Virus record (IMG/VR): IMGVR_UViG_3300044295_000252
Span: 66,682 to 130,681 of that record
DNA length: 64,000 bases
Reading direction: 5' to 3' (one strand)
Source: a virus
Taxonomy: Duplodnaviria; Heunggongvirae; Uroviricota; Caudoviricetes
Shown here: in pieces, positions 127 through 62,723 of the stretch
Position numbering within the stretch: the first letter of the stretch is position 1
How the letters are laid out: each line of letters begins with the position of its first letter
Notes under the pieces: generated by a model
Databases searched by the model: none
What the model was told of the DNA's origin: nothing
What the model saw: only the letters and a program-made list of their open reading frames with translations
Made by a program: the position numbers and the translations under genes

Positions 127-342
127 ATGGCAAAAGAAGAAGCCCTTAAGTTCACTGGCGAAATAGTAGAAACCTTACCCAACGCCATGTGGCGAGTAAA
201 ACTAACCAATGGTCCAGTAGTTTTGGCCTATTTGGGCGGTAAGTTACGTAAGTTTGACATCAATATTGGGCTAGGCGACCAAGTTGATCTTGAGTTCAGC
301 CCATACGATTTAACTAAGGGGCGAATCGTATATCGTAACTAA
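127..342 (+). CDS. infA: Translation initiation factor IF-1 (S1-like OB fold)
   Basis: 71 aa, [26 protein letters not shown]....GD.V..E.SPYDL.KGRIV.R. Aligns residue-for-residue with bacterial IF-1. AAGGAGAG SD 8 nt upstream. Confidence 0.9.
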
Positions 343-14724: not shown

Positions 14725-15827
14725 CTAGTGAAACCTTCTGCTGTTTACCCTTTATGCATTTGGCTACGCATCCAAATGGCGCAATCAGTCTATGTTGCGA
14801 AGCCAGCACCCAAGGTAAAACACTAAGCAATAACATAGAAGCACATAGACCCTATAAGTTAGCACAAGATAAACTGGTTGATGCAGTAAATAGTGAAAAT
14901 TTTTGCCAGTATAGGCGCGAAATGATAGCTGGTCAATGGCCCAAGCCCTGTGTAACTTGTAAAAACAAAGAAGCACAGGGACAACAAAGTAAGAGGCAAC
15001 GAGAGAATCGTCGCTGGCTGCCCATATTCAGTGAGCAAGAATTAATTAACAGATCAAATGCTGATGGTAAACTAAACAAAATTAATTTTGGTTTTATAGA
15101 ATTACGTTTAGCTAACACCTGCAATAGTGCATGTATAACTTGTAATCCAATAAGTAGCAGTCGCTGGATACAGGATGCTGATGCATTACAAAAATGCTTG
15201 CCTTGGTATCAAAATTTTTATACAAGCGAAAACAATTGGACTAACAACCCTCAAATCTTTGATGAGATAGCAGAACATTGTTCTGAGCTTAAGGAAATTT
15301 ATATCAATGGTGGCGAGCCTACACTGATACCACAGCATTATGCCTTATTAGATCGATTAGTAGGTAATAATAGCAGCAAAAATATTCGTTTACATTACAG
15401 TATAAATTGCACTAGATTGCCCAGCGAATTGGTTGATTTGTGGTTAAGATTTAAACAAGTAAACGTCAGTTGCAGCATTGATGAACTTGCTGAACGCAAT
15501 AATTACATACGTTGGCCAACCGAATGGGGAACCGTTTTAAACACCATCAACAAATTGCGTCACCATGCTAATACTACTATAATTACTGGTATTACACAAA
15601 CTGTTAGTATTTTTAATCAACATAGACTAACAGAGTTTGAATCGTTTGTTAAAAATATGTGGCCCAAAATGAATATCTATAAAAATTATTTAACTGAGCC
15701 TCATTATCTACAGGCTAATTTGCAGGACAACACCAAGTTTAGGGAATTTGTCAAAGCCATGGATCAAATACGACAAACAGATTTTGTCAAGACCTTTCCT
15801 GAATTGTCACACTTGTTAGATGAATAA
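14721..15827 (+). CDS. Radical SAM enzyme, paralogue 3
   Basis: CNSACITC (Cx3Cx2C). N-terminal FCCLPFMHLATHPNG..SLCC motif. ATGA overlap with the upstream gene. Confidence 0.75.
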   Translation: MTSETFCCLPFMHLATHPNGAISLCCEASTQGKTLSNNIEAHRPYKLAQDKLVDAVNSENFCQYRREMIAGQWPKPCVTCKNKEAQGQQSKRQRENRRWLPIFSEQELINRSNADGKLNKINFGFIELRLANTCNSACITCNPISSSRWIQDADALQKCLPWYQNFYTSENNWTNNPQIFDEIAEHCSELKEIYINGGEPTLIPQHYALLDRLVGNNSSKNIRLHYSINCTRLPSELVDLWLRFKQVNVSCSIDELAERNNYIRWPTEWGTVLNTINKLRHHANTTIITGITQTVSIFNQHRLTEFESFVKNMWPKMNIYKNYLTEPHYLQANLQDNTKFREFVKAMDQIRQTDFVKTFPELSHLLDE

Positions 15828-17100
15828 ACCACCACAAAACTTCTGTATGGCACCGTGGACTCATACTTATATTAGTCCACAGCATGAACGTCGTATGTGT
15901 TGCGCTAGTCGCGAACCAGCTCGCGGATTTAAACAATATATAGATACCGCAGAAGGCGACAATACCTATAGACCACAATCACTAGAAGAACACTGGAACA
16001 GCGAACACATGCGTAGTGTACGTCGTCGTATGCTAAGTGAGGAAGAACTGCCAGAATGTGAAGTATGTAATACCAAAATACTCAATACCAGCGTATATAG
16101 AAGTTACTTTAACCAACTTTTCCTACACAAATATCAGCAGGTATTGACCAGCACCGATACAACTGGTCATACCACAATGACACCAGTCAGCTGGGACTAT
16201 AGATTCAGTAATCTATGCAACTTTAAATGCAGAATGTGTGGAGACATGTTAAGCAGTGCATGGGAAACAGAGAACCGTGAACAGGGCAAAACTGAAGCAT
16301 GGATGCAGCCCGATATTAGGCGACAGATACAGCAATTTACTGATCAAGTTGTGATAAAAGAATTTGTTGAGGCAATAGAAAACAAAACTATTGAGGAAAT
16401 TTATTGGGTCGGTGGTGAACCATTGATGTGGGATATACATTGGCATGCGATGAAACGTATTATTGAGTTGGGCTATGCTACGCGAGTCTATCCCAGGTAC
16501 AATACCAATCTCAGCAGAGTAACCTATCAAAACCATAACCTGTTTGATTTGCTTAAACACTACAGAGACTGGCAGATATGTGCCAGTATAGATGCAACTG
16601 GAGACACCGGCGAATATATTAGGACAGGTCTTAACTACCAGCAATGGTTAGAAAACTTTGAACAGGGTGTGGCCATACAAAGAAATAACAGACAAATGCG
16701 TATTGACCTAACACTTACATTGCCGGGAATGTTTGATCTCGACAATATTGTGGCATTGGCTGACCGCTTACAAGTAGAAATCTTGACTAAGGTCTGCTTT
16801 GCATTTGATTCCGATATATTAATGAGCCCTATGTGTTTGCCCAGACCCTTGCTGAACAATTTATTGGATCGTCAGTTAAGTAAATTAACAAATAGTCGTC
16901 ACAGAAGCCTAAAAGAAGTTTTGGAAAATATGTATCATCGCCCAGTCTTTGCAGAGCAGTGGCCTGAACAATATGCGGCTGCGGCACAGCGTGGTAAACA
17001 ACGATTGTTAAAGTTGGAATCAATTAGACACTGCAATACAAATATGTCCAAGATCCTATCTGCGGATGCCGAAATACTGGCATGGTGGGAGTCTATCTAA
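15820..17100 (+). CDS. Radical SAM enzyme, paralogue 4
   Basis: CNFKCRMC (Cx3Cx2C). N-terminal FCMAPWTHTYISP..RMCC motif. 426 aa. Confidence 0.75.
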   Translation: MNKPPQNFCMAPWTHTYISPQHERRMCCASREPARGFKQYIDTAEGDNTYRPQSLEEHWNSEHMRSVRRRMLSEEELPECEVCNTKILNTSVYRSYFNQLFLHKYQQVLTSTDTTGHTTMTPVSWDYRFSNLCNFKCRMCGDMLSSAWETENREQGKTEAWMQPDIRRQIQQFTDQVVIKEFVEAIENKTIEEIYWVGGEPLMWDIHWHAMKRIIELGYATRVYPRYNTNLSRVTYQNHNLFDLLKHYRDWQICASIDATGDTGEYIRTGLNYQQWLENFEQGVAIQRNNRQMRIDLTLTLPGMFDLDNIVALADRLQVEILTKVCFAFDSDILMSPMCLPRPLLNNLLDRQLSKLTNSRHRSLKEVLENMYHRPVFAEQWPEQYAAAAQRGKQRLLKLESIRHCNTNMSKILSADAEILAWWESI

Positions 17101-18407
17101 TGTATGATGTCTTTTATAAAACAATACCCACGGGATTGTTTGCCCACGAACGACCGGCTGACAATTTAGATCACGCCGCAGCACAATGCCGCACCAAGTT
17201 TTTTTGGTACTTGGATGGTGTAAATGATTACAGCGATTTTGACTGGCATTGGCAACCTGCGCCCTGGGAACAGGAATTTACTCATATATTTGGTACACAG
17301 TGGCAACGGGACGGTGGTGCTGTATTTAGAGCCAAAACTGTAAAAGAACCTATAGATCATTTTCAAACGGCATTTACAGCGCGCCGCAAACTCAGCAACA
17401 ATGTTATTGATATTGGTGTTGGCACTGGCAACTATTTTGCAGACGTGGAACGTGCTACGAGTTCAGCAGAGTCCAGTCATGTTTGGATCAAACACGATAT
17501 GATCGATTGTGATCAATTTGATTTCAGTTGGCATCCCGACCATTACCAGGACAACTTGATGCACATTTTTGGCAGTCGTGATGACGTGCCTGGCAGTTTA
17601 CTTTATTTGCCGGTTAAAGACTTTTGTGCATACACAGAGCAATGCCGTCAGCACCCCACAGATTCCGCTCCACAATTAGTAGATTTCGCACGAATTCGAC
17701 GCCATACCAGCGCAAAATTGCAGGAAAAACCCCTGGATATCATCTATATCAGCAACGGGGAACCTGATGCAGAGCAGTGGTACAGACATGCTGTAAATAT
17801 AGCTCACAGGCCCATTCATAGGGTCATGAATGTACCCGGCAGGGCGGAAGCATACAAGGCAGCAGCACGAATGAGCACTACTGACTGGTTCTTTACGGTG
17901 TTCGCCAAATTGTCAGTAAGTGCTAACTTTCCCTGGGACTGGCAACCCGATCGCACCGAGCGTGAGCAGCATTACATATTCCACGCCAAAAACCCCGTCA
18001 ATGGGCTTGAGTATGGGCACATGGCCCTGCTGGCCTATAATAAGCGCCTAGTACTTGAAACCAACGACTGGGGCTTAGACTTTACCCTGAGCAGGCCACA
18101 TTGCGTAGTGCCTATATTCAGTGGGACCGCATACTTTAACGCAGATCCTTTCATGACTTGGCGCACCGCATTTCGTGAAGTGCTGAAATTAGTTCATACT
18201 GATCGCACTGCGCCCACTATTCCCAACCTGTATAGATTGCAGACATGGCTCAATACCGCACAAGGACCCAATGCGGAATATTGTTTGGCTGGCGCCAAAG
18301 ATGCTGTAGCTTATTACGACGAAGTTGGTGGTGACCTGCCCAAGTTATTATTAAGCTTTGAATGGCCCTGGCTTAGGGCTCGGTTTGAAGAAACTTGCAA
18401 ATTTTAG
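17082..18407 (+). CDS. hypothetical protein (441 aa)
   Basis: Long ORF, last gene of the + strand arm. Its 3' end overlaps the 3' end of a convergent - strand gene by 35 nt. Confidence 0.5.
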   Translation: MVGVYLMYDVFYKTIPTGLFAHERPADNLDHAAAQCRTKFFWYLDGVNDYSDFDWHWQPAPWEQEFTHIFGTQWQRDGGAVFRAKTVKEPIDHFQTAFTARRKLSNNVIDIGVGTGNYFADVERATSSAESSHVWIKHDMIDCDQFDFSWHPDHYQDNLMHIFGSRDDVPGSLLYLPVKDFCAYTEQCRQHPTDSAPQLVDFARIRRHTSAKLQEKPLDIIYISNGEPDAEQWYRHAVNIAHRPIHRVMNVPGRAEAYKAAARMSTTDWFFTVFAKLSVSANFPWDWQPDRTEREQHYIFHAKNPVNGLEYGHMALLAYNKRLVLETNDWGLDFTLSRPHCVVPIFSGTAYFNADPFMTWRTAFREVLKLVHTDRTAPTIPNLYRLQTWLNTAQGPNAEYCLAGAKDAVAYYDEVGGDLPKLLLSFEWPWLRARFEETCKF

Positions 18408-19485
18408 AAGCCACTTCTTCTACTTCGGTATCTGTAAGTTCAGGATATATTGGTAAACTTAAACAAGTTTTGCAATGTTCATCTGCCATGGGATATTCGT
18501 GTGGTGCAGAATATACATTTAGATCGTAGGCTGGTAGTGGTATTTCATAGGTCAACTTTGTTTCAATTGAACAAGTGGCAAGGAAGTTTTGCAAGGTGTA
18601 TCTGCGAGGAGTATGTATCACATACTTACTATAAGCAGGAGTAATCCTGTTATCATATTGCATAGTTTGCACTACAGGACTTAAAATACTGTCATAATAT
18701 GCTGCAATATCCCGTCTGCGTTCCTGCCACTTTTCAAAGTAGTTATATTTGATCAGCATCTGTGCACAGTCAACTTCGCTCATCCTACTATTAGTGCCAG
18801 ATTCTATATGAGAACCTGCGATTCCATGTTTATGCATACTGCCTACATCCAGTGCTAATTCAAAGTCATCCGTAAGCACCATACCACCATTGCCATAATT
18901 ATTGAAATTTTTCGTAGGATCAAAACTTAAACAGCTGATGGTACCCAAACTGCCGCTGGGTCTATTTTTAAAACTAGCGCCAAAGCTTTGGGCAGCATCT
19001 TCTATTATGGGAATATCATTACCAAAAAACTTTGTTACCAGTTGAAGCTTTTCATAGTCTAATATATTACCATAGAGATTTACATACAGTACGATATCAA
19101 TTTGTTTAGGGTCCTGAATTTTGTCCAGATCCAACAAACCATTGGCATCAATATCGCAAAACACAGGTCTACAACCGGCTTCATATACTGCATTAAGTGT
19201 TGCTATAAAACTAACCGTAGGAACCAATACACGCGGAATGTCTACAGGCCTTCTATTCTTTAAAGCTCTTAGCGCAAATATTAGTGCTTCAGTGCCACTG
19301 TGTACCGGTATGGCATGTGACCTACCGCAATGCCACTTCATTCTGGAGACAAAACGTGGAGAACTTCCGCTGTCCATCAACATGCCGGATTTCAATACCG
19401 CGTCTGTGACCGACAATATTTCTTCGCGTATTCGACTATACTGGCGCGCTATGCCATAAAGAGGTATTTTGTAAGTACCATTCAT
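18373..19485 (-). CDS. PLP-dependent sugar aminotransferase (DegT/DnrJ/EryC1/StrS family)
   Basis: Family-typical N-terminus (IPL.....QY..I..EI..A...VL.SG). LSFDPTKNF..GNGGMVLTDD block with the active-site Lys. Start probably at MNGTYKIPL (19485; track start 19539). Confidence 0.8.
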   Translation of the reverse strand: MNGTYKIPLYGIARQYSRIREEILSVTDAVLKSGMLMDSGSSPRFVSRMKWHCGRSHAIPVHSGTEALIFALRALKNRRPVDIPRVLVPTVSFIATLNAVYEAGCRPVFCDIDANGLLDLDKIQDPKQIDIVLYVNLYGNILDYEKLQLVTKFFGNDIPIIEDAAQSFGASFKNRPSGSLGTISCLSFDPTKNFNNYGNGGMVLTDDFELALDVGSMHKHGIAGSHIESGTNSRMSEVDCAQMLIKYNYFEKWQERRRDIAAYYDSILSPVVQTMQYDNRITPAYSKYVIHTPRRYTLQNFLATCSIETKLTYEIPLPAYDLNVYSAPHEYPMADEHCKTCLSLPIYPELTDTEVEEVASKICKFLQTEP

Positions 19486-20425
19486 AGTATCGTTTAAATC
19501 CTTCTTCCACGTTGATCTGTGGATTAAATTCAAAATCACTTTTTGCTTGTTGGATATTTAAATTTCCTCTACTGGGGTAATTGCCGTCACGATCCAACAC
19601 ATGAATATTTCCGCGACCCACAATATCCACAATCAGCTTTGCCGCTGACAATAAGGTGTGCTGCCTGCAATCACTGCGAGTAATATTGTAGATCTTGCCT
19701 GCGGTATTTGTTGATAACGCAGCCTGTACTATGCCACTAGCAGTATCATCCACATGTGTAAAGTCCAATACCTCGCTGGAACCGTGTACCTTAATGGTTT
19801 CGTCGCGCAGTGCAGAAACTATGAACTTACTTACTACACGGTCTTCCACGTCATATTCACCATAGACCGCACTGGGCCTAATAATCACGTATTCCATGCC
19901 GGTTCTGCGGCTGTAATCCTTTACCAATTGCTCACCAGCATATTTGAGTATTGCATATTGACCCTGCGGTCTACAGGTGTCAGACTCGGTAACTCCACTG
20001 GTAAAGTCACCATATACCATGCTGCTACTAATATAGACAAAACGTTTTACCTTATGCCTAGCAGCGTGTTCAAGCAAGTTTATTAGTCCAGATATCATTA
20101 CTTCCGAAGCATATACAGGATTAATGGCCACAGCTCTTTGCCTAGGAAAACCTGCTAAATGTATTACGGTGTCAGCCGTGGCTCTACAGTAAGCTACATC
20201 AATCAATTTGGTATCAGTAATGTTAAATGCTATGGACTTTGAATTAGTCTTTTTTTCACGTAACTGCATTACCGCATTTAATTGATTTCTTGGCAAAATA
20301 TCGTAATCTGTCCTATTGTCCACGTCATAAACTGTATGACCCTGATCCAATAGTAATTTAACTACATTATGTCCAATAAATCCCATACCGCCTGTAGTTA
20401 AGAAATTCATGTGTCTGTACCCCAA
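19436..20425 (-). CDS. NAD-dependent sugar epimerase/dehydratase (SDR family)
   Basis: GGMGFIGHNVVKLL Rossmann motif. YAILKYAGEQ (YxxxK catalytic dyad). 329 aa. Confidence 0.85.
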   Translation of the reverse strand: MGYRHMNFLTTGGMGFIGHNVVKLLLDQGHTVYDVDNRTDYDILPRNQLNAVMQLREKKTNSKSIAFNITDTKLIDVAYCRATADTVIHLAGFPRQRAVAINPVYASEVMISGLINLLEHAARHKVKRFVYISSSMVYGDFTSGVTESDTCRPQGQYAILKYAGEQLVKDYSRRTGMEYVIIRPSAVYGEYDVEDRVVSKFIVSALRDETIKVHGSSEVLDFTHVDDTASGIVQAALSTNTAGKIYNITRSDCRQHTLLSAAKLIVDIVGRGNIHVLDRDGNYPSRGNLNIQQAKSDFEFNPQINVEEGFKRYYEWYLQNTSLWHSAPV

Positions 20426-28799: not shown

Positions 28800-29846
28800 T
28801 TACCCATGTTTCAAGAGATACTGGTTTGAAACCGCTTTCCAATGTGCTTGGCTGTCCAGAGCCTTGAACACCAGACCCTCGCGCAGTTTGTTGTAATTCA
28901 ACTCACTATTGCCATCAGCATATTCCAGGACCTGGTCAACCGAACAATTCCCAAGTGTCGCGCAGATATTGATCACGGGCACATGTTTGAGTCCCAAATG
29001 ATCCACAAGTTCCTGGCGATCCCTGGGGCTAATATACTGACCCTTAACCACATCGTAGATGCTGTAAACATAAAAGTCCTGACCCTTTATGCCATAGTGA
29101 TTGCCCTGCACACCTTCGCCAATCAACTCACCCTGGATGGCGATGTTGTCCAGTCCCAGCGCCTGCATCCGTGCTTCAATGTCATACTTGCGAGCCTGGG
29201 CCCAAAGAGTATTACCTTCAGTTTCTTTGAGGTTGAGATTGCGGCTGCACACCAGGAACTCACCATCAATTATGGCTGCGGTCATGCTAGAACCTTCCAG
29301 CTTTTCCGTGACTTCATAGTCCAGTTCTTTGAGCTGGGGCCATTCGCTGACGAGGTTCTGGATACGTTCTTCATCAGTTTTAGGCACAGCACTGGGCCAC
29401 GCGCCCTTGACCACACCCGCTAACTGTGCGGGAACGGGCGGCTCATATTTGATGATGCCCAACCGTTCCGACACATCCATGCCAACAAAGTATTCCATGA
29501 GGCCTGCCACAGACAGTGGTAATATCAGATCCTGGCTCAGCTGTTTACGCAGACGCACAGTGCGAAGTCGTTCACCACTAATGCCTTCAAACTCGCTGGG
29601 CTCTCGGCCCTTGCTGAGGAACGGTGCCAAAGCATGGGGAATCCAGCTGTCTACTTCACAGTAGATCACTGGGTCACCCACTTTGAATTCGCCTTTCTTT
29701 ACCACCACAGTCCAACCATCCACCACCGCGCATTCAATGGCGTCAGCATCGGGGATGGCACGGATTTCTGCGATACATCTGATCGTTGCTAATTTTCTCA
29801 TGTTATTCCTCAACTTTTGTGATGCGGACTTCAACCGTGACGTCAA
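28800..29846 (-). CDS. putative RNA ligase (nucleotidyltransferase superfamily, phage Rnl-like)
   Basis: N-terminus KLATIRCIAEIRAIPDADAIE..DGWTVVVKKGEFKVGD is characteristic of the RNA_ligase family. KLEGS resembles the KxDG adenylation motif I. 348 aa. Confidence 0.5.
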   Translation of the reverse strand: MTSRLKSASQKLRNNMRKLATIRCIAEIRAIPDADAIECAVVDGWTVVVKKGEFKVGDPVIYCEVDSWIPHALAPFLSKGREPSEFEGISGERLRTVRLRKQLSQDLILPLSVAGLMEYFVGMDVSERLGIIKYEPPVPAQLAGVVKGAWPSAVPKTDEERIQNLVSEWPQLKELDYEVTEKLEGSSMTAAIIDGEFLVCSRNLNLKETEGNTLWAQARKYDIEARMQALGLDNIAIQGELIGEGVQGNHYGIKGQDFYVYSIYDVVKGQYISPRDRQELVDHLGLKHVPVINICATLGNCSVDQVLEYADGNSELNYNKLREGLVFKALDSQAHWKAVSNQYLLKHG

Positions 29847-37172: not shown

Positions 37173-37376
37173 ATCTATTTCCTTTAATTAAAGTTAATAC
37201 CTTAAACCAATATTTAGTGTATAACAACTGCTGAGAAAAGTAAACAGTTAATTATGCCAAAACAATGGCACATCGAAATGTGCCACTGTGGTAGTTGGGT
37301 AACAAGGCCTATTTCCCGCCCCGTGAGGTTTACGCCGCTAGGCGAAGATCCTCAGAATAAACGTTGTCATTTGCGT

Positions 37377-37574
37377 TTATAGTTTTGCTTCATTAACGAC
37401 GATCGCCTGTCGTGCTGTCTGTTCCGTTACTCCTTGCCCTGTCGAAACCTTGTCACCCCCATCAGAAAGAATCTCTTTCATAACCTCAACTCGTCCATCT
37501 ATGTGTTCGTAAATACCATATTGTATGTTATCACAAACAAATAAGATTCTTCTAAGTTTTGGTTTAGCCTGCAT
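37377..37574 (-). CDS. hypothetical small protein (66 aa; MQAKPKLRRILFV..)
   Basis: Weak. Lies in a ~500-nt mostly noncoding, structured region. Start abuts the tRNA-like 3' element. Confidence 0.25.
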   Translation of the reverse strand: MQAKPKLRRILFVCDNIQYGIYEHIDGRVEVMKEILSDGGDKVSTGQGVTEQTARQAIVVNEAKL

Positions 37575-37587
37575 AAAAAATCCCTTT

Positions 37588-37615
37588 TGGTGGAGGTGAG
37601 GAGAATCGAACTCCT
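37588..37615 (-). ncRNA. tRNA 3'-half-like element (T-arm AGGAG-TTCGATT-CTCCT + CACCTCC-A-CCA); no complete cloverleaf
   Basis: Reverse-complement of 37588-37615 is aggagttcgattctcctcacctccacca. No matching 5' acceptor strand (GGAGGTG) within 500 nt. Confidence 0.3.
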
Positions 37616-37699
37616 GTCCAGAACACATTTTACTTCACTTCATACAGCAATAGACTACAGTATATATTTATTTTTAACCAAGGTCAAATTAAAGTCATT

Positions 37700-38008
37700 T
37701 TATGATTGCGGCTGAAGTTGTTTTTTTAAGTCGTCAACCGTCTTTACTATATCTAATTCCTGTGGTTTGGAATGCGGATTTAATGGTAATGGTAATTGTT
37801 GCCATTCTGATTCTGATACTGAACTCACCAGCGCAAGTTCATAAGCATGACCATCGGAGCCATAAAACTCCACAGTATCAAAACCAACTAAACTGTGCGC
37901 GGCCCGTTCTGCTACACGAGATAATTCCTGCAATGCAGCTGGTTCTGCCACAATATATGCTCTGGTTTTGGGCCCTGAATGCGAATATAAATGTAGTCTT
38001 GCTTTCAT
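37700..38008 (-). CDS. hypothetical protein (102 aa)
   Basis: ATGA overlap with the DnaE-like gene. Confidence 0.45.
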   Translation of the reverse strand: MKARLHLYSHSGPKTRAYIVAEPAALQELSRVAERAAHSLVGFDTVEFYGSDGHAYELALVSSVSESEWQQLPLPLNPHSKPQELDIVKTVDDLKKQLQPQS

Positions 38009-39681
38009 GTTATATGTGCTATGTCTTTTAGGTTAAGTTTTTTACTTTTATATACGGTAACATATTCGCTATTGTTTTTATAGCCTAGTTTGCCCATTCC
38101 CCATAATATAGGCTGTTCATGGAAACTGGCAGCATGTGGCAACACTACGTCCAAATACCTGCCATTGCCAGTACCCAACGTGGCAAAGGTAATATATTCC
38201 TTTGGTCCACTTTTGAAGACTCTATAATTAGCAATAAGACCACAAAACTCAATTTGCCCTGGGCGTCTTACTTCCTGACACACAGGTATAAATCTGTGAC
38301 TATGCCAGCGTCCATTCGCCATAAGATCGTTTATTTCATTACCTTCCATAATAGCGGGCACTGCGCCAGCTAGTTTGGCCTCCTGATAATATACCCAATG
38401 AGCATATGATCCCTGACAGTGTTTTAATGTGGCACGCCAAAACTTTTCAGGATTGTGTGCCTTTTGATAAGCTAGAGCCCAGATTAATCTTCCCAAATTA
38501 GTGGCATGTGCTCTACATAGACCAAAATGACTTAGCTCACGCAGTGCTAATAATACCTCATCACGTCTGGGATTATCACCCACCATTTGCATAAACTCAA
38601 ATATTTTTTCCTCGTTCTTTTTTGCGAATGCTCTGCGCCACATATCTGCTTCATATTGATTACAGCCCAATATCTCACCAATTAGCATTATGGCATCATC
38701 CTCAAACACAATATGATCGTTGAAACTATCCTGACTCCAGTCCTGGAAACTATTTGCGCGACGACGACCCATAGTAGCTACTGGTCTAATCAGGGCGGTA
38801 GCTAAAACACAATCCGAACGTGTGCGGGTTTTTAAGGCTCTGAACAATCTTTTCATAGCTGGACTTTCGCCTTGAGTAACACCTAACGTATTACCAGTCA
38901 TCAATAATTGAGCAGTATCATAGTCTTCTTCTGGATATGATAAAAGATCTCGTTGTTCTATCTCCCACAATTGACTTAATCCACGATTAGCTAAAATGTC
39001 TATTTTAAAATGTTCTAAATCCTCAATCTCATATTTGTCTAATAAAATTTGATTTTTTGCATTGATTAGGCTTTTTGGTACACTACGGTCAAAAATCAAT
39101 ATTCCACCACAGTGTTTACTGATGGCTCTTTTTTTGCCCTGCAACTTGTTGGCAAGACGTTCTGCTTCTGCAACGTATTGTTCTTCTACGACATCAGCAA
39201 GTTTAAAATTCCTTTTCAGCTTACCTTTTGCGCCATAGCGTTTTGCAGCTTCGCGTATTGCACTCTTTTCTTTATAGGTAACATAATTGCTTACTCGTGC
39301 ACTTTGCCCAGGCCAACGTTTGAATATTCTATTCATTACAGTTTCCTGTTGCCAATGTGGGAAATCTAGATCAATGTCTGGCAAGTCATCACGTTTTGGA
39401 TTCATAAAACGTGATAATGGAATTCTTTCCTGCACAGGATCTACATCGCTTATACCGAGAAGATAGCAGACAAGACTACTGCCTGCAGATCCGCGTGTGA
39501 TGTGTGGTATATCTTTTGTGAGATCTAATATTTCGCGAACACGAAGAAAATGTTTCGCAAATCCTAACTTTGCAATGATTTCTAATTCTTCTTCTAGTCT
39601 TTTTGAATATTCTTCTGTATTAGATAATTGTCTTGTGAATAGAGATATAAGTTTTTCAAGTTCATCAAATCTGTCGCCCAT
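38005..39681 (-). CDS. DNA polymerase III alpha (DnaE, C-family)-like catalytic protein lacking the PHP domain
   Basis: ELEIIAKLGFAKHFLRV, TRGSAGSSLVCYLLGISDVDP and RFMNPKRDDLPDIDLDF match the DnaE palm with catalytic Asp residues. C-terminal OB-like segment. Only 558 aa. Confidence 0.75.
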   Translation of the reverse strand: MGDRFDELEKLISLFTRQLSNTEEYSKRLEEELEIIAKLGFAKHFLRVREILDLTKDIPHITRGSAGSSLVCYLLGISDVDPVQERIPLSRFMNPKRDDLPDIDLDFPHWQQETVMNRIFKRWPGQSARVSNYVTYKEKSAIREAAKRYGAKGKLKRNFKLADVVEEQYVAEAERLANKLQGKKRAISKHCGGILIFDRSVPKSLINAKNQILLDKYEIEDLEHFKIDILANRGLSQLWEIEQRDLLSYPEEDYDTAQLLMTGNTLGVTQGESPAMKRLFRALKTRTRSDCVLATALIRPVATMGRRRANSFQDWSQDSFNDHIVFEDDAIMLIGEILGCNQYEADMWRRAFAKKNEEKIFEFMQMVGDNPRRDEVLLALRELSHFGLCRAHATNLGRLIWALAYQKAHNPEKFWRATLKHCQGSYAHWVYYQEAKLAGAVPAIMEGNEINDLMANGRWHSHRFIPVCQEVRRPGQIEFCGLIANYRVFKSGPKEYITFATLGTGNGRYLDVVLPHAASFHEQPILWGMGKLGYKNNSEYVTVYKSKKLNLKDIAHIT

Positions 39682-51562: not shown

Positions 51563-52459
51563 TTAGTTACGTATAACCATATGATTTTTTATAATCTTAC
51601 CGTAAAATTCCATTTGTTCGCTGTGCCATAGGTTAAATTGATTGATATTTAACAAATTCATTATTAGCCCAGCACGTTCAGTATCTGCGGCAAAATCCTC
51701 GTCCTTGGATATACGATTAATAAAATTGACCCAGTAAGACTTTTCAACTTGGGACATATTTTTAGGTATAGCAAACAAAGCATAGGCAGTCGTTTTCATT
51801 TCCCTACCAAATGTTTCTTTAAAAGTTGGCACCCCCTGCAGTTGGGCGAATTTATGTTGACTGTTAACAGCCAAAATCTTTACGTTTTTATTGTTTAATA
51901 AGGGACTTATACCTGTCAAATTTGTCATTGAAAAATCAGTTTGTTTAGATAATACACTTAAAACAGACTGCGCGCCGCCGTTATAGGGGATAGGGCGTGC
52001 ACGGACGGATGCAGTTTCTAAAAATTCCAAAATTCCAATATGATTGAAAGACCCAGATGTAGAATACAACAGCTCTTTCCCTTGCATTATTTTTATGAGC
52101 TCATGCACAGTTTTAATTTCCAAAAAACTATGTGCAAACAAAATATTAGGTGAACTGCCTAATACCATTAAATCAAAACGTTCAGAAAAATTAAATGATT
52201 TTTCATCTGAGTAAAGTAAAGGGTCAGTTATGGCGAAACTCATGCCCATAGATATTAAATATCTTTTTTTTACTGCTTGGTCAAATTGTTGAATGGATCT
52301 TCCTTGATTTTGATTGATCACAATAGAATTTTTTTCATATTTTGATATGAGCCTAGCTATGGTATCACTCCAACCACCAGCCGCATATGGCACATAGATT
52401 ACATTTTGAGCGTGGGATATTTGGATAGAAAGCAAGAATAGGAATATAAGTAGCTTCAT
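51563..52459 (-). CDS. TctC/Bug-family periplasmic solute-binding protein-like (signal peptide)
   Basis: Signal peptide MKLLIFLFLLSIQISHA. IYVPYAAGGWSDTIARLISK matches the Bug/TctC N-terminal signature. The gene opens an AT-rich island. Confidence 0.5.
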   Translation of the reverse strand: MKLLIFLFLLSIQISHAQNVIYVPYAAGGWSDTIARLISKYEKNSIVINQNQGRSIQQFDQAVKKRYLISMGMSFAITDPLLYSDEKSFNFSERFDLMVLGSSPNILFAHSFLEIKTVHELIKIMQGKELLYSTSGSFNHIGILEFLETASVRARPIPYNGGAQSVLSVLSKQTDFSMTNLTGISPLLNNKNVKILAVNSQHKFAQLQGVPTFKETFGREMKTTAYALFAIPKNMSQVEKSYWVNFINRISKDEDFAADTERAGLIMNLLNINQFNLWHSEQMEFYGKIIKNHMVIRN

Positions 52460-53331
52460 AATGTTAAATCATTAATTATTTCTTTTACAGACTTAATGGA
52501 ATAAATGTAATCAATCGCGGTTCCAGCCAAAATATGACCTTGAGAGCCGCTGTTTAACCCTGTATATAAACTCTCAGTATGATTCATTTCTTCAGATTCA
52601 ACGTGCGATAAAATTAAGGCATTTTGTTTGTTGTATTTTCCAACCATTTCCTTCACATCTTTACTAAAACTGCTGACAACTTTTAGTTTTGCTTCCTCTG
52701 AAACTTTGCTTTCCTTGGAAAAAGCAAATAATGTTCCAATCCCAACTGCACACGCACCAATTTCCATCAACTGTAATATTTGAGATTTTGAATGTATACC
52801 GCCCGAGGGGATTAAACATTTTTCCGGAAACTTTTGTTTATAATCTATCAGCATAACATCTAAGGAATCTGTTGTGTTGCCTATTCTACCAGCAGCTTTA
52901 GAAGATTTAAAAATTAACCCATCATAAAAATCAAGATTATCTAAATACGATGTACTTTTCAAAAGCACTTTACATCCCAAATTTTTAATTTTTTCAAAAT
53001 TATTTTTCCTTTGTGTTGTGGTGATTTCGGCTCTATGTAATAGTTCACAATGACTAACCATTTTCAAAGCTTCAAGAACGTCATGGGAATTTAAGTTATC
53101 TTCGGGTACACTGAATAATAAATTTTTACCTTTTGATATCTTTTGAAATAAACTTAAATCGTTAACTAGCAAGTTATAATTTATTTTTCCGTTGTTCCTA
53201 TATGAGGACAAGGATAAACTGGGGAATGCTCCGGCTTTGAATACACTCAGAGCCAATTTTAAATCTGAAACACCATTCATGGGTAGACATATGATAGGAT
53301 GTTTACAATCAAAAAAATTTTCACAACTCAT
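52456..53331 (-). CDS. NMO/FabK-like FMN-dependent TIM-barrel oxidoreductase
   Basis: IICLPMNGVSDLKLALSVFKAGAF and GACAVGIGTLFAFSKES resemble the nitronate monooxygenase/enoyl-ACP reductase II family. Confidence 0.5.
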   Translation of the reverse strand: MSCENFFDCKHPIICLPMNGVSDLKLALSVFKAGAFPSLSLSSYRNNGKINYNLLVNDLSLFQKISKGKNLLFSVPEDNLNSHDVLEALKMVSHCELLHRAEITTTQRKNNFEKIKNLGCKVLLKSTSYLDNLDFYDGLIFKSSKAAGRIGNTTDSLDVMLIDYKQKFPEKCLIPSGGIHSKSQILQLMEIGACAVGIGTLFAFSKESKVSEEAKLKVVSSFSKDVKEMVGKYNKQNALILSHVESEEMNHTESLYTGLNSGSQGHILAGTAIDYIYSIKSVKEIINDLTL

Positions 53332-54532
53332 AAAGCTTAGATCTTATTTTAAAAATTGATTTGGGGTACAAGACGTTTTGATAGGAAAAATAATCCTCAA
53401 TCCAATTTGGTTGAATAGTATTACTTAAGTATTTTAAGCCATCTAAAAATATTTTTACTTGAGGTTCGTTACCTTTAGTCCAAAACCATGAATCCCTTGA
53501 ACTAAGGAAATTGCCCGTAATTGATTTAGTTATAAGCCTATTTGATATATCCCAGTAGGGATAAATCAATGTTTTAAAATTGTCTATTTCTAATAATTTT
53601 CTGCCCTGCCACAAAACAAACGCATTCTCGTCTTTTATTGATTGATTTTTCAATGAGTTTCTAATATTATCATTATTTGACAAGAAGTTTTTTATTATAT
53701 GCGCTTGTTTGATAATGATTTTAGCAGAAGCTGAAGTCGGTCCCCAGTAAAACAATTCATTTGATATAGAATTGTGATTTGAAGTTTGTTGTGGTCTTAA
53801 TGAAAAAATCCCATCTATCACATCAAGGAAATAGAAGAAAAATTTGCCATTTTTTATAGTCAATTTAGGCTTTTCTCCGCCCCACAGCAAACACACCCTC
53901 TTGCCGGATTCGGTTATTCTTTGCCATTCCGGAACAAGATTTTCTAATTCACCTTTAGCTTGGCAATATGCGCTGCCATAATTATTGATCCAATGTATGA
54001 AGTCTAATTGCGTATTTTTATTGTAAAATTTTAAGGTTTGTTCGGTGATGTCCAACAACCTTATTTTAGTTTTCAGTTTATATTGTTCAATCAAATTTTC
54101 TATTTTTGGCTTGCCTACGTTAAATACTTCAAAATTATGGAAACTATTTTGATTTCTAGACCCATTCATATTCGTTAAACAACATACTTCATCTAAATAA
54201 ATATTATTTCTAACAAAAGTCTCAAGTATATTGCCCGAATCTGCACCACCACCGTACATCAAAATTATGTAATCAAACCTATGTCTTAATTCTAATGCTT
54301 TGTCAATATAACATGCTTCTAAAGATACGCTGGGTTCCTGTTTCCAATCAAACGAACTAAAAAAATCGTCGTGGTAATGCCAACTTACATCTCGAGGATC
54401 ATTGGTTAAAAGCATTAGATCATACTTATTATTAAATTTTAAGTTTTGAAAAAGATAATAACCATAATAGTCAGTATCTGGCGAAAGAATAGATGTCATT
54501 TTACTAAAATAGTTATTTTGTTCTTGCTTCAT
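53321..54532 (-). CDS. hypothetical protein (403 aa), AT-rich
   Basis: Long ORF. No recognised motifs. Confidence 0.5.
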   Translation of the reverse strand: MKQEQNNYFSKMTSILSPDTDYYGYYLFQNLKFNNKYDLMLLTNDPRDVSWHYHDDFFSSFDWKQEPSVSLEACYIDKALELRHRFDYIILMYGGGADSGNILETFVRNNIYLDEVCCLTNMNGSRNQNSFHNFEVFNVGKPKIENLIEQYKLKTKIRLLDITEQTLKFYNKNTQLDFIHWINNYGSAYCQAKGELENLVPEWQRITESGKRVCLLWGGEKPKLTIKNGKFFFYFLDVIDGIFSLRPQQTSNHNSISNELFYWGPTSASAKIIIKQAHIIKNFLSNNDNIRNSLKNQSIKDENAFVLWQGRKLLEIDNFKTLIYPYWDISNRLITKSITGNFLSSRDSWFWTKGNEPQVKIFLDGLKYLSNTIQPNWIEDYFSYQNVLYPKSIFKIRSKLYEL

Positions 54533-55643
54533 ATTTCTTTATCATAGATTCGTAATGTTTAAAACTTTTTGCTTTAGGTGCACAGACGCCGCAGAAACAA
54601 GTAGGTTTGCGACACTGAATAACGGGTAACGTGTCAGCACTTAGTTGAGTTCGCAATCGATCCAATATAGCATCAGGGTCAGACAAATTACCAATGGGGC
54701 TTACTGTACCATCAAAATTCATTTTACAATCTTTATTGACATAAACATCACCATATACTTGTTTAACGAAAAGAAAGAACCAGTTCACACTGCAATACCA
54801 ACCACTGAACTTATTTTGAACGAAGAAGTCACGTTTTTTGAAGTTTTGATCCATGCAAACTTGTCTACCACCGCAACAGGCTCTGCCCACTTGGGTTAAG
54901 TCAGTTTGCGACTGTTGTGGTGTAATCTCTATGGATGTTTTGTAGCTGTGATCCTTATATAATTGATTAAACCACGCTATCTGCTGCTCATTATATGTGA
55001 AATGTTGCCAATGTGGTGGATGATCCAGTTGTCGCGGCAATGATGCAACATTGTGCTCACGTAACCAAGCCAACATCTGCTGCGCATCAGCAAATAATTC
55101 AGGTTCTGTATGCATTAACACGATACATTTCAATGAACGTCCACTATCGCGCAACATCAGCAAATTATCTCGGAATTGTTGCTTTTGTTTGGCTGAATTC
55201 TCTGTGTGGTAGCTAACCGTAAAGTGGTCAATCAGTGGGATAATGGCACTTAGTTTCTTCTTGGATACAATTGCATTAGTGGTGTTGGCAATACTAAGTG
55301 ACCAACGATCCTGATACTGCTGATGTTTGCTTTTTGCAGCTTGTAATATTTCCACAATGTGAGGATGTGCTAGTGCTTCACCTCCATATACATTTAGGTT
55401 GGCACTTCGCAGTGAAGGCAGTTTATACTGCATGTATAAGTCTGCATATTGATACATAAAGTCCAGACCCTGCAAACATTTCTCTAATGGCGGATGTTGT
55501 GTAGTGTTATCATGTCCACCATTATAACCAGTGCCGCAATAGGTACAGTCCAAATTACACTTTTGGGTTAATTCCCAGTCTAATAAGAATCCCATTTTGT
55601 TATTGGGATCTGGGAATGGTTCAAGGACAGAGAATGATTGCAT
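54513..55643 (-). CDS. Radical SAM enzyme, paralogue 5
   Basis: CNLDCTYC (Cx3Cx2C) near the N-terminus. C-terminal Cys-rich region (CCGGRQVC .. CRKPTCFCGVC) is SPASM/twitch-like. Confidence 0.7.
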   Translation of the reverse strand: MQSFSVLEPFPDPNNKMGFLLDWELTQKCNLDCTYCGTGYNGGHDNTTQHPPLEKCLQGLDFMYQYADLYMQYKLPSLRSANLNVYGGEALAHPHIVEILQAAKSKHQQYQDRWSLSIANTTNAIVSKKKLSAIIPLIDHFTVSYHTENSAKQKQQFRDNLLMLRDSGRSLKCIVLMHTEPELFADAQQMLAWLREHNVASLPRQLDHPPHWQHFTYNEQQIAWFNQLYKDHSYKTSIEITPQQSQTDLTQVGRACCGGRQVCMDQNFKKRDFFVQNKFSGWYCSVNWFFLFVKQVYGDVYVNKDCKMNFDGTVSPIGNLSDPDAILDRLRTQLSADTLPVIQCRKPTCFCGVCAPKAKSFKHYESMIKKYEARTK

Positions 55644-55719
55644 ACTGTAGTTTATAATGTACCACTTGTTAAGTCAAACACATTTATTTAAGTGTTTGTC
55701 TGCTTCTATAAGTAAAAAC

Positions 55720-57024
55720 ATGCCGGATAAAAAGATCTTTTGTAATGTGCCCTGGACCAATACTCATATATACTGGGATGGCGGTTTTGGTGCATGCTGT
55801 AGTGAGAAAACCAAACCCTACACGGAGGCTCAATCACAACAATATAACATAAAGAACATGAATATAGTTCAGTGGTATAATTCAGATGCCATGAAACAAA
55901 TGCGAAACCAAATCAAAAGTTCTGACAAGTTACCTCAGTGCCGTGGCTGTTATCACGAAGAACAGCATGGCTATGAAAGCCGACGTATCAAAGAGAATTT
56001 CAAAAGTGTTATCTTTACTGAGCATAACTTTGATCGCAGTTATCAACAAAGTCCTGGCTATGTTGCATTTGAACATGATGGTGACGCTGAAATGCCTGTG
56101 GATTGGCATGTGGATCTAGGCAATGAATGTAATTTGGCCTGTAAGATGTGCAACCCTAACGCCAGCAGCATCGTAGCAACTCAATACAAACGATGGCAAC
56201 TGTGGGATGCCCCTGTTAATGTAACGTGGACCAGAGACGATGCAGCTTGGAACCGATTCCTGACTGATATAGTGGCAATTGAAAAACTGAACCGTGTGCA
56301 TTTTATGGGCGGCGAACCCGCAATATCCAAACGATTTGTGGAATTTCTCCAATACATGATAGATCACGATAGAACTGATGTTAGCATCAGCTTTGTTACT
56401 AACGGAACCATCATTAACGATAACCTACTTGACTTGTTGCAGCGTTTCAGAACCTTTGACATTGAGGTTAGTATTGAAGCCATGTCAGTTAACAATCACT
56501 ACATTAGGCAGGGCAGCGATACTGAGCAGGTTAAGTCTAATATTCTATATCTAAAAGGTCTACAAAGCGACAAGTTTCATTTGATATTACGCTCGGTGCC
56601 ACAATTGTTAAACGTCAATAACTATGACCAATATATACGCTGGGCCTGGGATCAGCAATTGCCTGTATCTGGAATACCGTTGACAAGGCCAGCACACTAC
56701 GCTATCGCAGTTCTTCCCAGTGATTTACGTGAACGTTTCATACCACAATATCAGGCTTTGACGGCATTTTTACGGACTCAAATAACTGACGCAAATAGAT
56801 TGTATACTGGGCGCAGTGTTAGTGGGCTAGCATCGCAGTTGATACGCGAAGCTGAATCCGTAATTGCTATGTTGCGTTCACCGGAACCCAGCGATGTGGA
56901 ACAATTACGACATGAATTGACTGCAGATATGATGCGTTGGGACACTGTTTACAAATTAAATGCGCTGGATTTTTATCCAGAATACCGAGATTTCTTTTTG
57001 AAATATGGCTACATACCTCACTGA
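55720..57024 (+). CDS. Radical SAM enzyme, paralogue 6 (same family as 14721 and 15820 proteins)
   Basis: N-terminal FCNVPWTNTHIYWDGG..ACC motif. CNLACKMC (Cx3Cx2C). Start placed at MPDKK (track ORF starts at 55657). Divergently oriented to paralogue 5. Confidence 0.7.
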   Translation: MPDKKIFCNVPWTNTHIYWDGGFGACCSEKTKPYTEAQSQQYNIKNMNIVQWYNSDAMKQMRNQIKSSDKLPQCRGCYHEEQHGYESRRIKENFKSVIFTEHNFDRSYQQSPGYVAFEHDGDAEMPVDWHVDLGNECNLACKMCNPNASSIVATQYKRWQLWDAPVNVTWTRDDAAWNRFLTDIVAIEKLNRVHFMGGEPAISKRFVEFLQYMIDHDRTDVSISFVTNGTIINDNLLDLLQRFRTFDIEVSIEAMSVNNHYIRQGSDTEQVKSNILYLKGLQSDKFHLILRSVPQLLNVNNYDQYIRWAWDQQLPVSGIPLTRPAHYAIAVLPSDLRERFIPQYQALTAFLRTQITDANRLYTGRSVSGLASQLIREAESVIAMLRSPEPSDVEQLRHELTADMMRWDTVYKLNALDFYPEYRDFFLKYGYIPH

Positions 57025-62106: not shown

Positions 62107-62134
62107 TGTGCTAATTATACACGCTGACGATTAT
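62107..62134 (-). promoter_or_regulatory. sigma70-type promoter (-35 TTGACA 62129-62134, 16-nt spacer, -10 TATAAT 62107-62112)
   Basis: Reverse-complement reads TTGACAaataatcgtcagcgtgTATAATtagcac. ~60 nt upstream of the NadM-Nudix start. Confidence 0.65.
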
Positions 62135-62400
62135 TTGTCAACTTCTTTTTTCCGTGCGTAGAACACTGGGTCATAGTCACGATCCACAGTCCAGTCGCCC
62201 AGGACCACACCGTTCTCGTCCCAGATCCTTAGGGTCAGTGGCCACTGACTTTCCCATCCGTCGTGATTGCTGTGATAGTCGTTGGCACAATCCTCCACTA
62301 ACCACTCAGAGGATTCAATATCCCACTGTGATTTAAATTCAATCGCATGTTCAAATGCGATGTCAGGACTATATTCAACTGGATAATAACGTACCAACAT
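62131..62400 (-). CDS. hypothetical protein (89 aa), acidic/Trp-rich
   Basis: First gene downstream of the tRNA. Confidence 0.5.
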   Translation of the reverse strand: MLVRYYPVEYSPDIAFEHAIEFKSQWDIESSEWLVEDCANDYHSNHDGWESQWPLTLRIWDENGVVLGDWTVDRDYDPVFYARKKEVDK

Positions 62401-62418: not shown

Positions 62419-62685
62419 TGGTGGGCCCTGTAGGATTCGAACCTACGACCAAGCGATTCTGGTTTGTGTGAGTTTCCTCACTCCCTGGACTTTGCCTTCA
62501 CCATTGCTTGCGCTTTAGGTGGGTGCCGTCAAGTCTCTACACGTTCCTATCTCTAGGCTTCGCTCGGCGTTGCCATATGTTACCACTTAGGTTTCACCGA
62601 ATTTGACACCATTCACTCGGGCAGTTTCCTGATCCGGTGCACGATTCCATGAGTCGCCTGCTCTAACCAACTGAGCTAAGAGCCC
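62419..62685 (-). tRNA. tRNA-Ile2 (anticodon CAU, lysidine-type) gene interrupted by a group I intron. Exon 1 is 62649-62685, exon 2 is 62419-62458, CCA encoded
   Basis: Spliced product GGGCTCTTAGCTCAGTTGGTTAGAGCAGGCGACTCAT|AATCGCTTGGTCGTAGGTTCGAATCCTACAGGGCCCACCA folds as a canonical cloverleaf. Its D- and anticodon-arms match E. coli ileX as recalled. Confidence 0.85.
62459..62648 (-). other. Group I self-splicing intron (subgroup IC3, Azoarcus/cyanobacterial tRNA-intron type), 190 nt, inserted after anticodon position 36
   Basis: The 5' exon ends in U and the intron ends in G (omega-G). Core blocks AUGGUGUCAAAUUCGGUGAAACCUAAG, UAUGGCAACGCCGAGCGAAGC and GUGUAGAGACUUGACGGCACCCACCUAAAGC match the Azoarcus pre-tRNA-Ile ribozyme core. 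Confidence 0.8.
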
Positions 62686-62694
62686 TTAATGTCT

Positions 62695-62723
62695 ATTGTA
62701 TGACTATTAACCGCATTTGTCAA
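62695..62723 (-). promoter_or_regulatory. sigma70-type promoter for the tRNA (-35 TTGACA 62718-62723, 17-nt spacer, -10 TACAAT 62695-62700)
   Basis: Predicted +1 is ~3 nt upstream of tRNA position 1. Divergent from the + strand gene starting at 62741. Confidence 0.6.

Follow-up and report, generated by a model that had tools for sequence, protein, structure and literature searches.

A split tRNA(CAU) gene with an Azoarcus-type group I intron in a phage genome

A tRNA gene interrupted by a small group I intron was identified in a 64,000-nucleotide (nt) stretch of a Caudoviricetes genome (IMG/VR record IMGVR_UViG_3300044295_000252, positions 66,682 to 130,681). The whole stretch is called the window, and all positions refer to it. 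The split tRNA(CAU) gene occupies 62685-62419 on the minus strand, and its 190-nt insert follows anticodon base 36. On the strength of sequence comparison, the locus is very probably a functional phage tRNA-Ile2(CAU) gene with an intact Azoarcus-type self-splicing intron and no homing endonuclease. A gene of this kind had been proposed in an earlier note, which was made from the letters of the window. The gene is made up of three parts:

62649-62685, minus strand: 5' exon of tRNA-Ile2(CAU), 37 nt, GGGCUCUUAGCUCAGUUGGUUAGAGCAGGCGACUCAU, ending ...CUCAU
62459-62648, minus strand: group I intron of subgroup IC3, Azoarcus type, 190 nt, GGAAUC...AACCAG, without an open reading frame (ORF)
62419-62458, minus strand: 3' exon, 40 nt, AAUCGCUUGGUCGUAGGUUCGAAUCCUACAGGGCCCACCA, AAUCGC...ACCA

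The 5' exon contained the 5' strand of the acceptor stem, the D arm, the 5' half of the anticodon stem and the loop bases C32, U33, C34, A35 and U36; its final U, at 62649, was the 5' splice site. The 3' exon resumed with A37 and A38 and comprised the 3' half of the anticodon stem, the variable loop UGGUC, the T arm and the 3' strand of the acceptor stem, followed by a discriminator A and a CCA encoded in the DNA. ARAGORN with default settings (no intron mode) called no tRNA at the locus, and the Rfam tRNA model had no match anywhere in the window. With the -i option, ARAGORN reported tRNA(cat) i(38,190) with the anticodon at gene positions 35-37, and the joined exons formed a 77-mer with a canonical cloverleaf. 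The insertion between positions 36 and 37, the cloverleaf of the spliced product, the final U of the 5' exon and the final G of the intron (62459), all of which the earlier note had described, were confirmed with agreeing coordinates. The Rfam group I model that the note had suggested as a check (Intron_gpI, RF00028) matched 62660-62466 on the minus strand along the full model (1-253), with 55.9 bits against a gathering threshold of 50 and an E-value of 1.7e-11. The locus shows that standard tRNA finders, and the phage annotation built on them, miss such split genes.

The fold of the intron was evaluated with an explicit Azoarcus-style structure that included the four tRNA stems, P1, P2, P3, P4, P5/P5a, P6/P6a, P7, P8, P9 and P9.0. 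All of the 76 specified pairs were Watson-Crick or G-U in the window copy. Every helix from P1 to P9 was able to pair, including P7 with its guanosine site, as the earlier note had expected. The main elements of the fold are located as follows:

62640-62642, minus strand: internal guide sequence GUG, pairing with exon CAU to form P1, with a U36-G wobble at the splice site
62625-62628, minus strand: L2 GAAA tetraloop, capping P2 (62639-62614)
62573-62591, minus strand: P5 with the canonical 11-nt GAAA-tetraloop receptor CCUAAG...UAUGG
62532-62537, minus strand: 5' strand of P7, GAGACU with a bulged A, the same as in the Azoarcus sequence
62499-62521, minus strand: P8, a hairpin (CACC...GGUG) whose internal loop, CCUAAA/AAUGG, resembles a receptor as a variant of the 11-nt motif
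62487-62491, minus strand: 3' strand of P7, AGUCC
62468-62481, minus strand: P9 hairpin GUGAG-GAAA-CUCAC, with the L9 GAAA at 62476-62473
62459, minus strand: omega-G, the final intron base; the CC just before it pairs with GG to form P9.0

The structure was then compared across an alignment of the window copy with 33 bacterial and 10 viral homologues (44 sequences). Pairing was maintained in 94.4% of the cells of the alignment, whereas sliding the 3' partners by 1-3 columns lowered this value to 34-41%. Compensatory changes on both sides were found for 39 pairs, and the observed values were reached by none of 500 shuffles. Most of the compensatory variation fell in P2, P4, P5, P6, P9, P9.0 and the tRNA stems; four of the five pairs of P9 and both pairs of P9.0 covaried. 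P1 was formed by exon C35-A36-U37 with intron G46-U45-G44 (gene numbering), and the combination CG, AU and UG was present in 44/44 sequences. P1 was lengthened by G38-C43, a covarying fourth pair that closed a GAAU loop. P7, the guanosine-binding helix, formed a pseudoknot with P3, and its five pairs were invariant in all 44 sequences. The omega-G column was likewise invariant, and AAUC came next in nearly all homologues. P5a was short, with a GUAA loop. The P5 motif CCUAAG...UAUGG was taken to be a tetraloop receptor from general knowledge of the 11-nt motif, and the docking of L9 with P5 would follow the Azoarcus structures by analogy. The P8 loop (62516/62504 region) was observed as G/U, A/C or A/A across the homologues, with A/A in the window; this variation is compatible with isosteric replacement of G-U and A+-C wobbles.

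The window copy was also checked at the columns for which the remaining 43 sequences showed at least 95% conservation. It departed at 6 of 157 such columns, with no departure in the catalytic core. The six consisted of an acceptor-stem U-G pair, a C-G/G-C exchange in the anticodon stem that is compensatory and accounts for two columns, an extra base in P2 and two positions in the P6a loop, which is shortened. No sign of decay is apparent from these comparisons. It is highly improbable that the intron is a decaying relic that no longer splices and has left the tRNA gene a pseudogene. The hairpins of P5a and P6a are shorter than their Azoarcus counterparts and the P8 receptor is non-canonical, as a relic might have it, but these truncations lie in peripheral loops that are variable in length among the bacterial homologues too. 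Furthermore, all helices are intact, the core junctions equal the family consensus, the six departures are benign, and a near-perfect promoter precedes the gene.

The Azoarcus intron has 205 nt and lies in the anticodon loop of a pre-tRNA-Ile. The Ile2.5Ug class is one of the four classical classes of bacterial tRNA introns, all of which are IC3. An insertion at 36/37, after the fifth base of the anticodon loop in a CAU tRNA, fits the definition of this class, and by its sequence features the window intron matches Ile2.5Ug exactly. The sequence of the Azoarcus BH72 ribozyme was taken from the template printed in PMC8890501. Identity to this ribozyme was 78.4% along the whole length (138/176 aligned non-N positions), with two exact 16-mers in common (ATGGTGTCAAATTCGG and GACGGCACCCACCTAA) and exact common blocks in P3-J3/4-P4 (ATGGUGUCAAAUUCGG) and J7/3-P3'-P8 (GACGGCACCCACCUAA). 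The assignment to an Azoarcus-type IC3 core was borne out by this identity and by the identical P3 and P7 segments. The further wording of the earlier note, a core nearly identical to Azoarcus in long blocks, was a fair description, although the blocks that it had quoted were each off by one or two bases.

The two introns agree in the tRNA that they interrupt, the insertion site 36/37, the pairing of the GUG guide with anticodon CAU, the U(-1) and omega-G at the splice sites, and the absence of an ORF. Both have the P2-P9 architecture with GAAA tetraloops in L2 and L9, the CCUAAG/UAUGG receptor in P5, and identical P3, P7, J3/4, J4/5 and J6/7 segments. In contrast to the Azoarcus intron, the window intron is 190 nt long, mainly because P5a and P6a are shorter by 6 and 8 nt, respectively. 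Its P2 sequence differs, its P8 receptor has A/A instead of G-U, its tRNA exons are different, and it is found in a phage, not on the chromosome of a betaproteobacterium. The lengths of the 44 homologous introns ranged from 189 to 222 nt (median 206), and the two shortest were a viral copy of 189 nt and the window intron; the earlier description as a very small IC3 intron was therefore apt. Across all frames of the intron, the longest ORF had 44 amino acids (aa) and was antisense, so that no endonuclease ORF was present; hence, this is not an endonuclease-bearing mobile intron. The splicing mechanism itself is expected to be conventional.

The identity of the tRNA was explored by comparison with 5,426 Escherichia coli genomes. 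The best match was a gene with anticodon CAT that RefSeq/PGAP annotates as tRNA-Ile, with 88.3% identity over 77 nt, and positions 8-48 (through the variable loop) were identical except for one D-loop base. This result agreed with the earlier observation that the D arm and the anticodon arm match tRNA-Ile2. The G27-U43 wobble was present in 42 of the 44 homologues. We conclude that the tRNA is a lysidine-dependent tRNA-Ile2, predicted to decode AUA. The TilS determinants of E. coli, a list specific to that species, are G27-U43, C4-G69 and C5-G68; the window tRNA has the first two, and its pair 5-68 is U-G, not C-G. No TilS was found among the window ORFs scanned, the window being part of the genome. 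An elongator or initiator tRNA-Met would be the other reading of a CAU anticodon, and many homologous phage tRNAs carry that annotation. ARAGORN also gives the Met label to any CAT anticodon; it does so because of the anticodon letters only. A tRNA-Met is nevertheless very unlikely, since the best E. coli match is a tRNA-Ile whose D arm, anticodon arm and variable loop are essentially the same, the family retains the G27-U43 wobble, the intron class is defined on tRNA-Ile2, and the 1-72 mismatch of initiator tRNAs is absent.

In the codon usage of the window ORFs, AUA accounted for 17.8 per 1000 codons and 30% of the Ile codons, at a window GC content of 43.6%. Intron-less tRNA-Ile2 genes are common cargo in large phages, e.g., phiKZ-like Pseudomonas phages and S16-like Salmonella phages. 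These genes encode the same tRNA species, are usually annotated as tRNA-Met, and share 87-91% identity with the exons over the matching stretches; unlike the window gene, they are uninterrupted. On the simplest view, the window gene would serve to supply AUA decoding and would have been captured with the intron already in place.

The region upstream of the gene contained a promoter, a further ORF followed the CCA, and more promoters of this kind lay elsewhere in the window:

62695-62723, minus strand: sigma-70-type promoter, -35 TTGACA at 62723-62718, 17-nt spacer, -10 TACAAT at 62700-62695, 11/12 consensus positions
62131-62400, minus strand: ORF of 89 aa with no known domain, starting 18 nt after the CCA and preceded by a GGGAG ribosome-binding site
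62141, 59707, 50975, 47384, 45690, 36406 and 35534, minus strand: examples of further promoters
35176, 30336, 26423, 26044 and 25539, minus strand: examples of further promoters

The -10 hexamer ended 9 nt before tRNA position 1 (a 9-nt leader). As a reasonable inference from this spacing, transcription would start at about 62688, 1-5 nt (about 3 nt) before the tRNA. The window contained 21 near-consensus sigma-70 promoters (at least 11/12), whereas 2.06 ± 1.42 were expected. Of these, 20 fell within 24253-63760 of the minus strand, one every 0.4-4 kb, and eleven were perfect (12/12, TTGACA-N16/17-TATAAT). This series suggests a long block that would be transcribed by unmodified host RNA polymerase. 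The consensus promoter from which, according to the earlier note, transcription would start about 3 nt before the tRNA is present; it is not special to the tRNA. A tRNA-specific promoter was ruled out by the 20 such promoters on the same strand, and the tRNA heads one of many similar transcription units. The 89-aa ORF was called likewise in independent contigs, and the next consensus promoter downstream of the tRNA was at 62141. Because a terminator is absent between the tRNA and this ORF, the ORF is probably co-transcribed with the pre-tRNA.

The phage origin of the locus was examined through its neighbours and through independent assemblies. The window proteins included a virion structural protein (phrog_19943, 502 bits), a tail-fibre-like protein, a phage-family DNA polymerase, an HNH endonuclease, NadV, NatV, a dCMP deaminase and several radical-SAM proteins. 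In tblastn searches, the structural protein matched phages only, at 34-39% identity (Methylophilales, Roseobacter and Pelagibacter phages and cyanophages). No close deposited relative was found, as a megablast search with 20 kb of the window gave just short tRNA-exon matches among 50,697 phages. An IMG/VR search for related loci via NatV found none. The locus recurred in contigs of two samples of the Joint Genome Institute, 3300044297 and 3300048694; one contig was 100% identical over 5,996 nt and the other 99.83% identical over 4,042 nt (7 mismatches). The 305 nt of promoter and pre-tRNA were identical in both.

According to these results, the phage setting described in the earlier note holds, with phage-type genes on both sides, and the tRNA region shows no sign of being a chimera, with the same junctions in two further assemblies. 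The segment would be foreign to the phage if host sequence had been mis-assembled into the contig or if a host tRNA flanked a prophage. tRNA genes are frequent prophage integration sites, and IMG/VR records and bins of metagenome-assembled genomes (MAGs) do include misassigned contigs. Such an origin is hardly credible here in view of the phage-type genes on both flanks of a 64-kb phage window, the strand and promoter style that match the surrounding phage units, the identical junctions in assemblies from different samples, and a similarity of about 82% at most to any bacterial copy among the matches listed.

Several points weigh against the reading of a functional, intact gene. P3, P7 and the outer part of P8 are invariant and gain no covariation support, though they are compatible with the fold; the invariance of P3'/P8 arises partly by construction, because the 16-mer used to collect the homologues lies there. 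The z-score of the minimum free energy (MFE) of the intron alone was just -1.27, which is not significant. P10 would have about 2 bp. In P8, the receptor departs from the canonical motif, with A/A in the place of G-U. No terminator was detected after the tRNA. The zero differences in the 305 nt are uninformative on selection, since about 0.5 would be expected. Moreover, AUA might also be frequent in a host whose GC content is close to that of the window (43.6%), which weakens the codon-supply argument. MFE folding recovered P2, P4-P5, P6a, P8 and P9, but with this z-score it was set aside as independent evidence. The CCUAAA...AAUGG variant of P8 also occurred in several bacterial homologues, and L074 and L022 were among the copies that had it; L2 was GAAA.

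The relatives in bacterial chromosomes were collected by searching bacterial genomes for a single 16-mer (in P3'/P8), and at least 120 loci were returned. Those among the matches listed were mostly from Betaproteobacteria (Methylophilaceae, Polynucleobacter, Oxalobacteraceae, Comamonadaceae, Neisseriales and Rhodocyclaceae), and at least about 65 of the listed loci aligned with the whole window pre-tRNA at 71-83% identity. Azoarcus BH72 itself was not among the matches listed. The pairing of this intron with tRNA-Ile(CAU) in bacterial chromosomes, to which the earlier note had referred, was thus recovered. These chromosomal split tRNA-Ile2 genes are homologous to the window gene over the full length of exons and intron, with compensatory variation that fits one fold; unlike the window copy they adjoin ordinary genes, and no copy listed exceeds about 83% identity. 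The closest among the matches listed was in contig JBAXLV010000426 of an Alcaligenaceae MAG (L074), with about 78-83% identity (82.8% by BLAST), and it was the nearest neighbour of the window in 160 of 200 bootstraps. The possibility that this contig is a mis-binned phage fragment was rejected, its neighbours being a LysR regulator and a DoxX protein in ordinary chromosomal DNA. A metagenome scan with a 27-mer specific to the sub-lineage gave nothing closer than about 82%, and tblastx of the window flanks against more than 200 fetched loci gave no flanking synteny.

Two scans of IMG/VR identified 13 viral contigs, with 11 distinct sequences, that carried a homologous split tRNA(CAU) (L004, L006, L008, L010, L011, L012, L015, L017, L018, L019, L022, L209 and L212). 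A split tRNA-Leu(UAA) was present in six viral sequences (L003, L006, L009, L020, L022 and L219), of which five are IMG/VR contigs and one is LR756501. Several of the viral split tRNAs lay in dense arrays of roughly 12-24 tRNAs. Phage character was indicated for L006 by a score of 904 bits against a phage-only family and for L008 by a large terminase, and two other viral contigs had large ORFs without phrog matches. L003 is LR756501.1, a 735-kb uncultured megaphage, in which an unannotated tRNA-Leu(UAA) at 1427-1717 contained a 205-nt group I intron; Intron_gpI scored 56.6 bits when this intron was scanned alone, and the default filters in a larger batch missed the match.

Six of the seven introns most similar to that of the window were viral, which suggested a single phage-specific lineage. 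This possibility was rejected on the basis of a neighbour-joining tree of the intron columns, in which the viral copies were scattered among the bacterial ones. Hence, several independent transfers are indicated, and the tree favours separate captures over one phage reservoir lineage. The earlier note had offered host-phage transfer or a phage reservoir; transfer agrees with a chromosomal relative at 78-83% identity, whereas a single reservoir lineage is less favoured.

Further observations were made on the viral contigs. L006 (IMGVR_UViG_3300020047_009414) contained both a split Leu-UAA and a split CAU tRNA, at 4483-4779 and 5874-6154, among about 19 tRNA genes, and L022 also held both. The only protein-level similarity of the window to the other split-tRNA viral contigs was a 68-aa stretch with 53% identity (window 133-336, L017 5462-5665). 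Most matches of the second scan lay outside tRNA genes; about 19 viral contigs (L197-L218) had the P3-J3/4-P4 16-mer ATGGTGTCAAATTCGG with no tRNA nearby, and they probably hold IC3-like introns in protein-coding genes. In L001 (KT997847.1, about 1474-1660) and L002 (Pelagibacter phage HTVC120P, about 1464-1655), the capsid was annotated as two adjacent ORFs, and the gap between them matched the P3-P7 core of the window at 78-83% identity over about 80-90 nt. These gaps look like unannotated Azoarcus-like group I introns in the capsid genes of marine podophages.

Group I introns of phages have been described in protein-coding genes. According to the review of Hausner (2014), every phage intron then known lay in such genes despite the many phage tRNA genes, and the surveys of tRNA group I introns (Williams 2020; the 2026 Patescibacteria paper) covered bacterial and archaeal genomes only. 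No publication describing a phage tRNA gene with a group I intron was found; most subscription-journal papers were outside this search, so that the absence is not proof. The introns of T4 td, nrdB and nrdD, Twort orf142, and the SPO1 and Bastille DNA polymerases resemble the window intron in being phage-borne, self-splicing group I introns, and the putative capsid-splitting introns of the Pelagibacter podophages HTVC120P and KM23-C739 have a similar P3-P7 core (78-83% identity). They differ in that they interrupt mRNAs, often with a homing endonuclease, and belong mostly to other subgroups (IA2 in T4 and Twort), whereas the window intron lies in the anticodon loop of a tRNA and lacks an ORF. 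The cyanobacterial and plastid tRNA-Leu(UAA) intron, Leu.3Ug, represents a sister class whose members are likewise small IC3 introns of tRNA genes. It also occurs in viral sequences, but it has another tRNA and the insertion site 34/35. The class is known; its phage setting is essentially undocumented, rare yet recurrent in viromes. With the window, the approximately 13 split tRNA(CAU) genes and the six split tRNA-Leu(UAA) genes of viruses, the 2014 statement no longer holds. The rarity claimed in the earlier note is correct for the literature and for deposited phage genomes; uniqueness is not, given the 13 and 6 further cases.

Other features of the window concern RNA metabolism, the host and modification pathways. 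A two-piece (circularly permuted) transfer-messenger RNA (tmRNA) of betaproteobacterial type was located at 37239-37701 on the minus strand (Rfam tmRNA_permuted 144.7 bits, beta_tmRNA 117.7 bits; ARAGORN tag peptide ANDNVYSEDLRLAA), and it hints at a betaproteobacterial host. An RNA ligase at 28800-29846 on the minus strand had the Pfam RNA_ligase domain and the OB-fold domain of PHA02142. In combination with the tRNA and the tmRNA, this enzyme suggests phage investment in RNA repair and in the rescue of translation. The region 51563-53331 (minus strand) encoded a homologue of TctC/Bug-family periplasmic receptors and a nitronate-monooxygenase-like protein. The Bug family is greatly expanded in Burkholderiales, which makes this homologue a possible host clue. 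At least five ORFs with radical-SAM domains lay in two clusters (13372-17100 on the plus strand, 54513-57024 and 18373-20425 on the minus strand), and the same regions encoded a DegT-family aminotransferase and an NAD-dependent sugar epimerase/dehydratase; the set may represent a nucleotide-sugar or DNA/RNA modification pathway. The DNA polymerase ORF at 38005-39681 (minus strand, 558 aa) matched just positions 358-828 of a 1190-position phage polymerase profile, and the gene may be split or interrupted.

For a functional gene with a self-splicing intron, the course of expression can be proposed as follows. Host RNA polymerase with sigma-70 would start a few bases upstream and produce the pre-tRNA, probably together with the 89-aa ORF. 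The intron would fold into P1-P9, with the GAAA tetraloops of L2 and L9 docking in the receptors of P8 and P5, and the GUG guide would pair with the anticodon CAU to form P1. A free guanosine bound in P7 would attack after U36, omega-G (62459) would take its place, and the exons would be ligated. RNase P and 3' trimming would then yield the 77-nt tRNA, in which host TilS would convert C34 to lysidine and thereby allow charging with Ile and reading of AUA. The gene was most likely captured with its resident intron from a betaproteobacterial chromosome, and the intron may persist because it splices efficiently and because precise loss is not easy.

A different account of this persistence is that the intron is beneficial to the phage and not merely tolerated. 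For example, the maturation of tRNA-Ile2 could be tied to the guanosine nucleotide pool or to the timing of infection, or the anticodon loop could be shielded until splicing from host anticodon nucleases or endonucleases that target tRNA genes. The recurrence of split tRNA(CAU) and tRNA-Leu(UAA) genes in unrelated viral contigs, the viral origin of the two shortest introns (189 and 190 nt), and the RNA ligase and tmRNA of the window are in line with a benefit. However, the same intron occupies the same tRNA in many bacterial chromosomes without any phage, and inheritance by gene capture suffices. Nothing in the sequence marks a regulatory role, and once spliced, the tRNA would have no more protection from anticodon nucleases than other tRNAs. 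A benefit as the cause of retention was therefore judged unlikely, and a tolerated intron that arrived with its gene is preferred.

Ribozyme research uses the Azoarcus intron as a standard model, and the locus gives a natural 190-nt variant of this intron with shortened P5a and P6a hairpins. The locus is also a concrete system for how introns without a homing endonuclease spread. As a tentative and rather doubtful extension, phages of freshwater and soil Betaproteobacteria may repeatedly capture tRNA genes with IC3 introns and carry them between hosts, with the introns retained because they give some means to control or protect the supply of tRNA in the course of infection. If this is true, phages would be the missing vector for the patchy bacterial spread of the Ile2.5Ug and Leu.3Ug introns.

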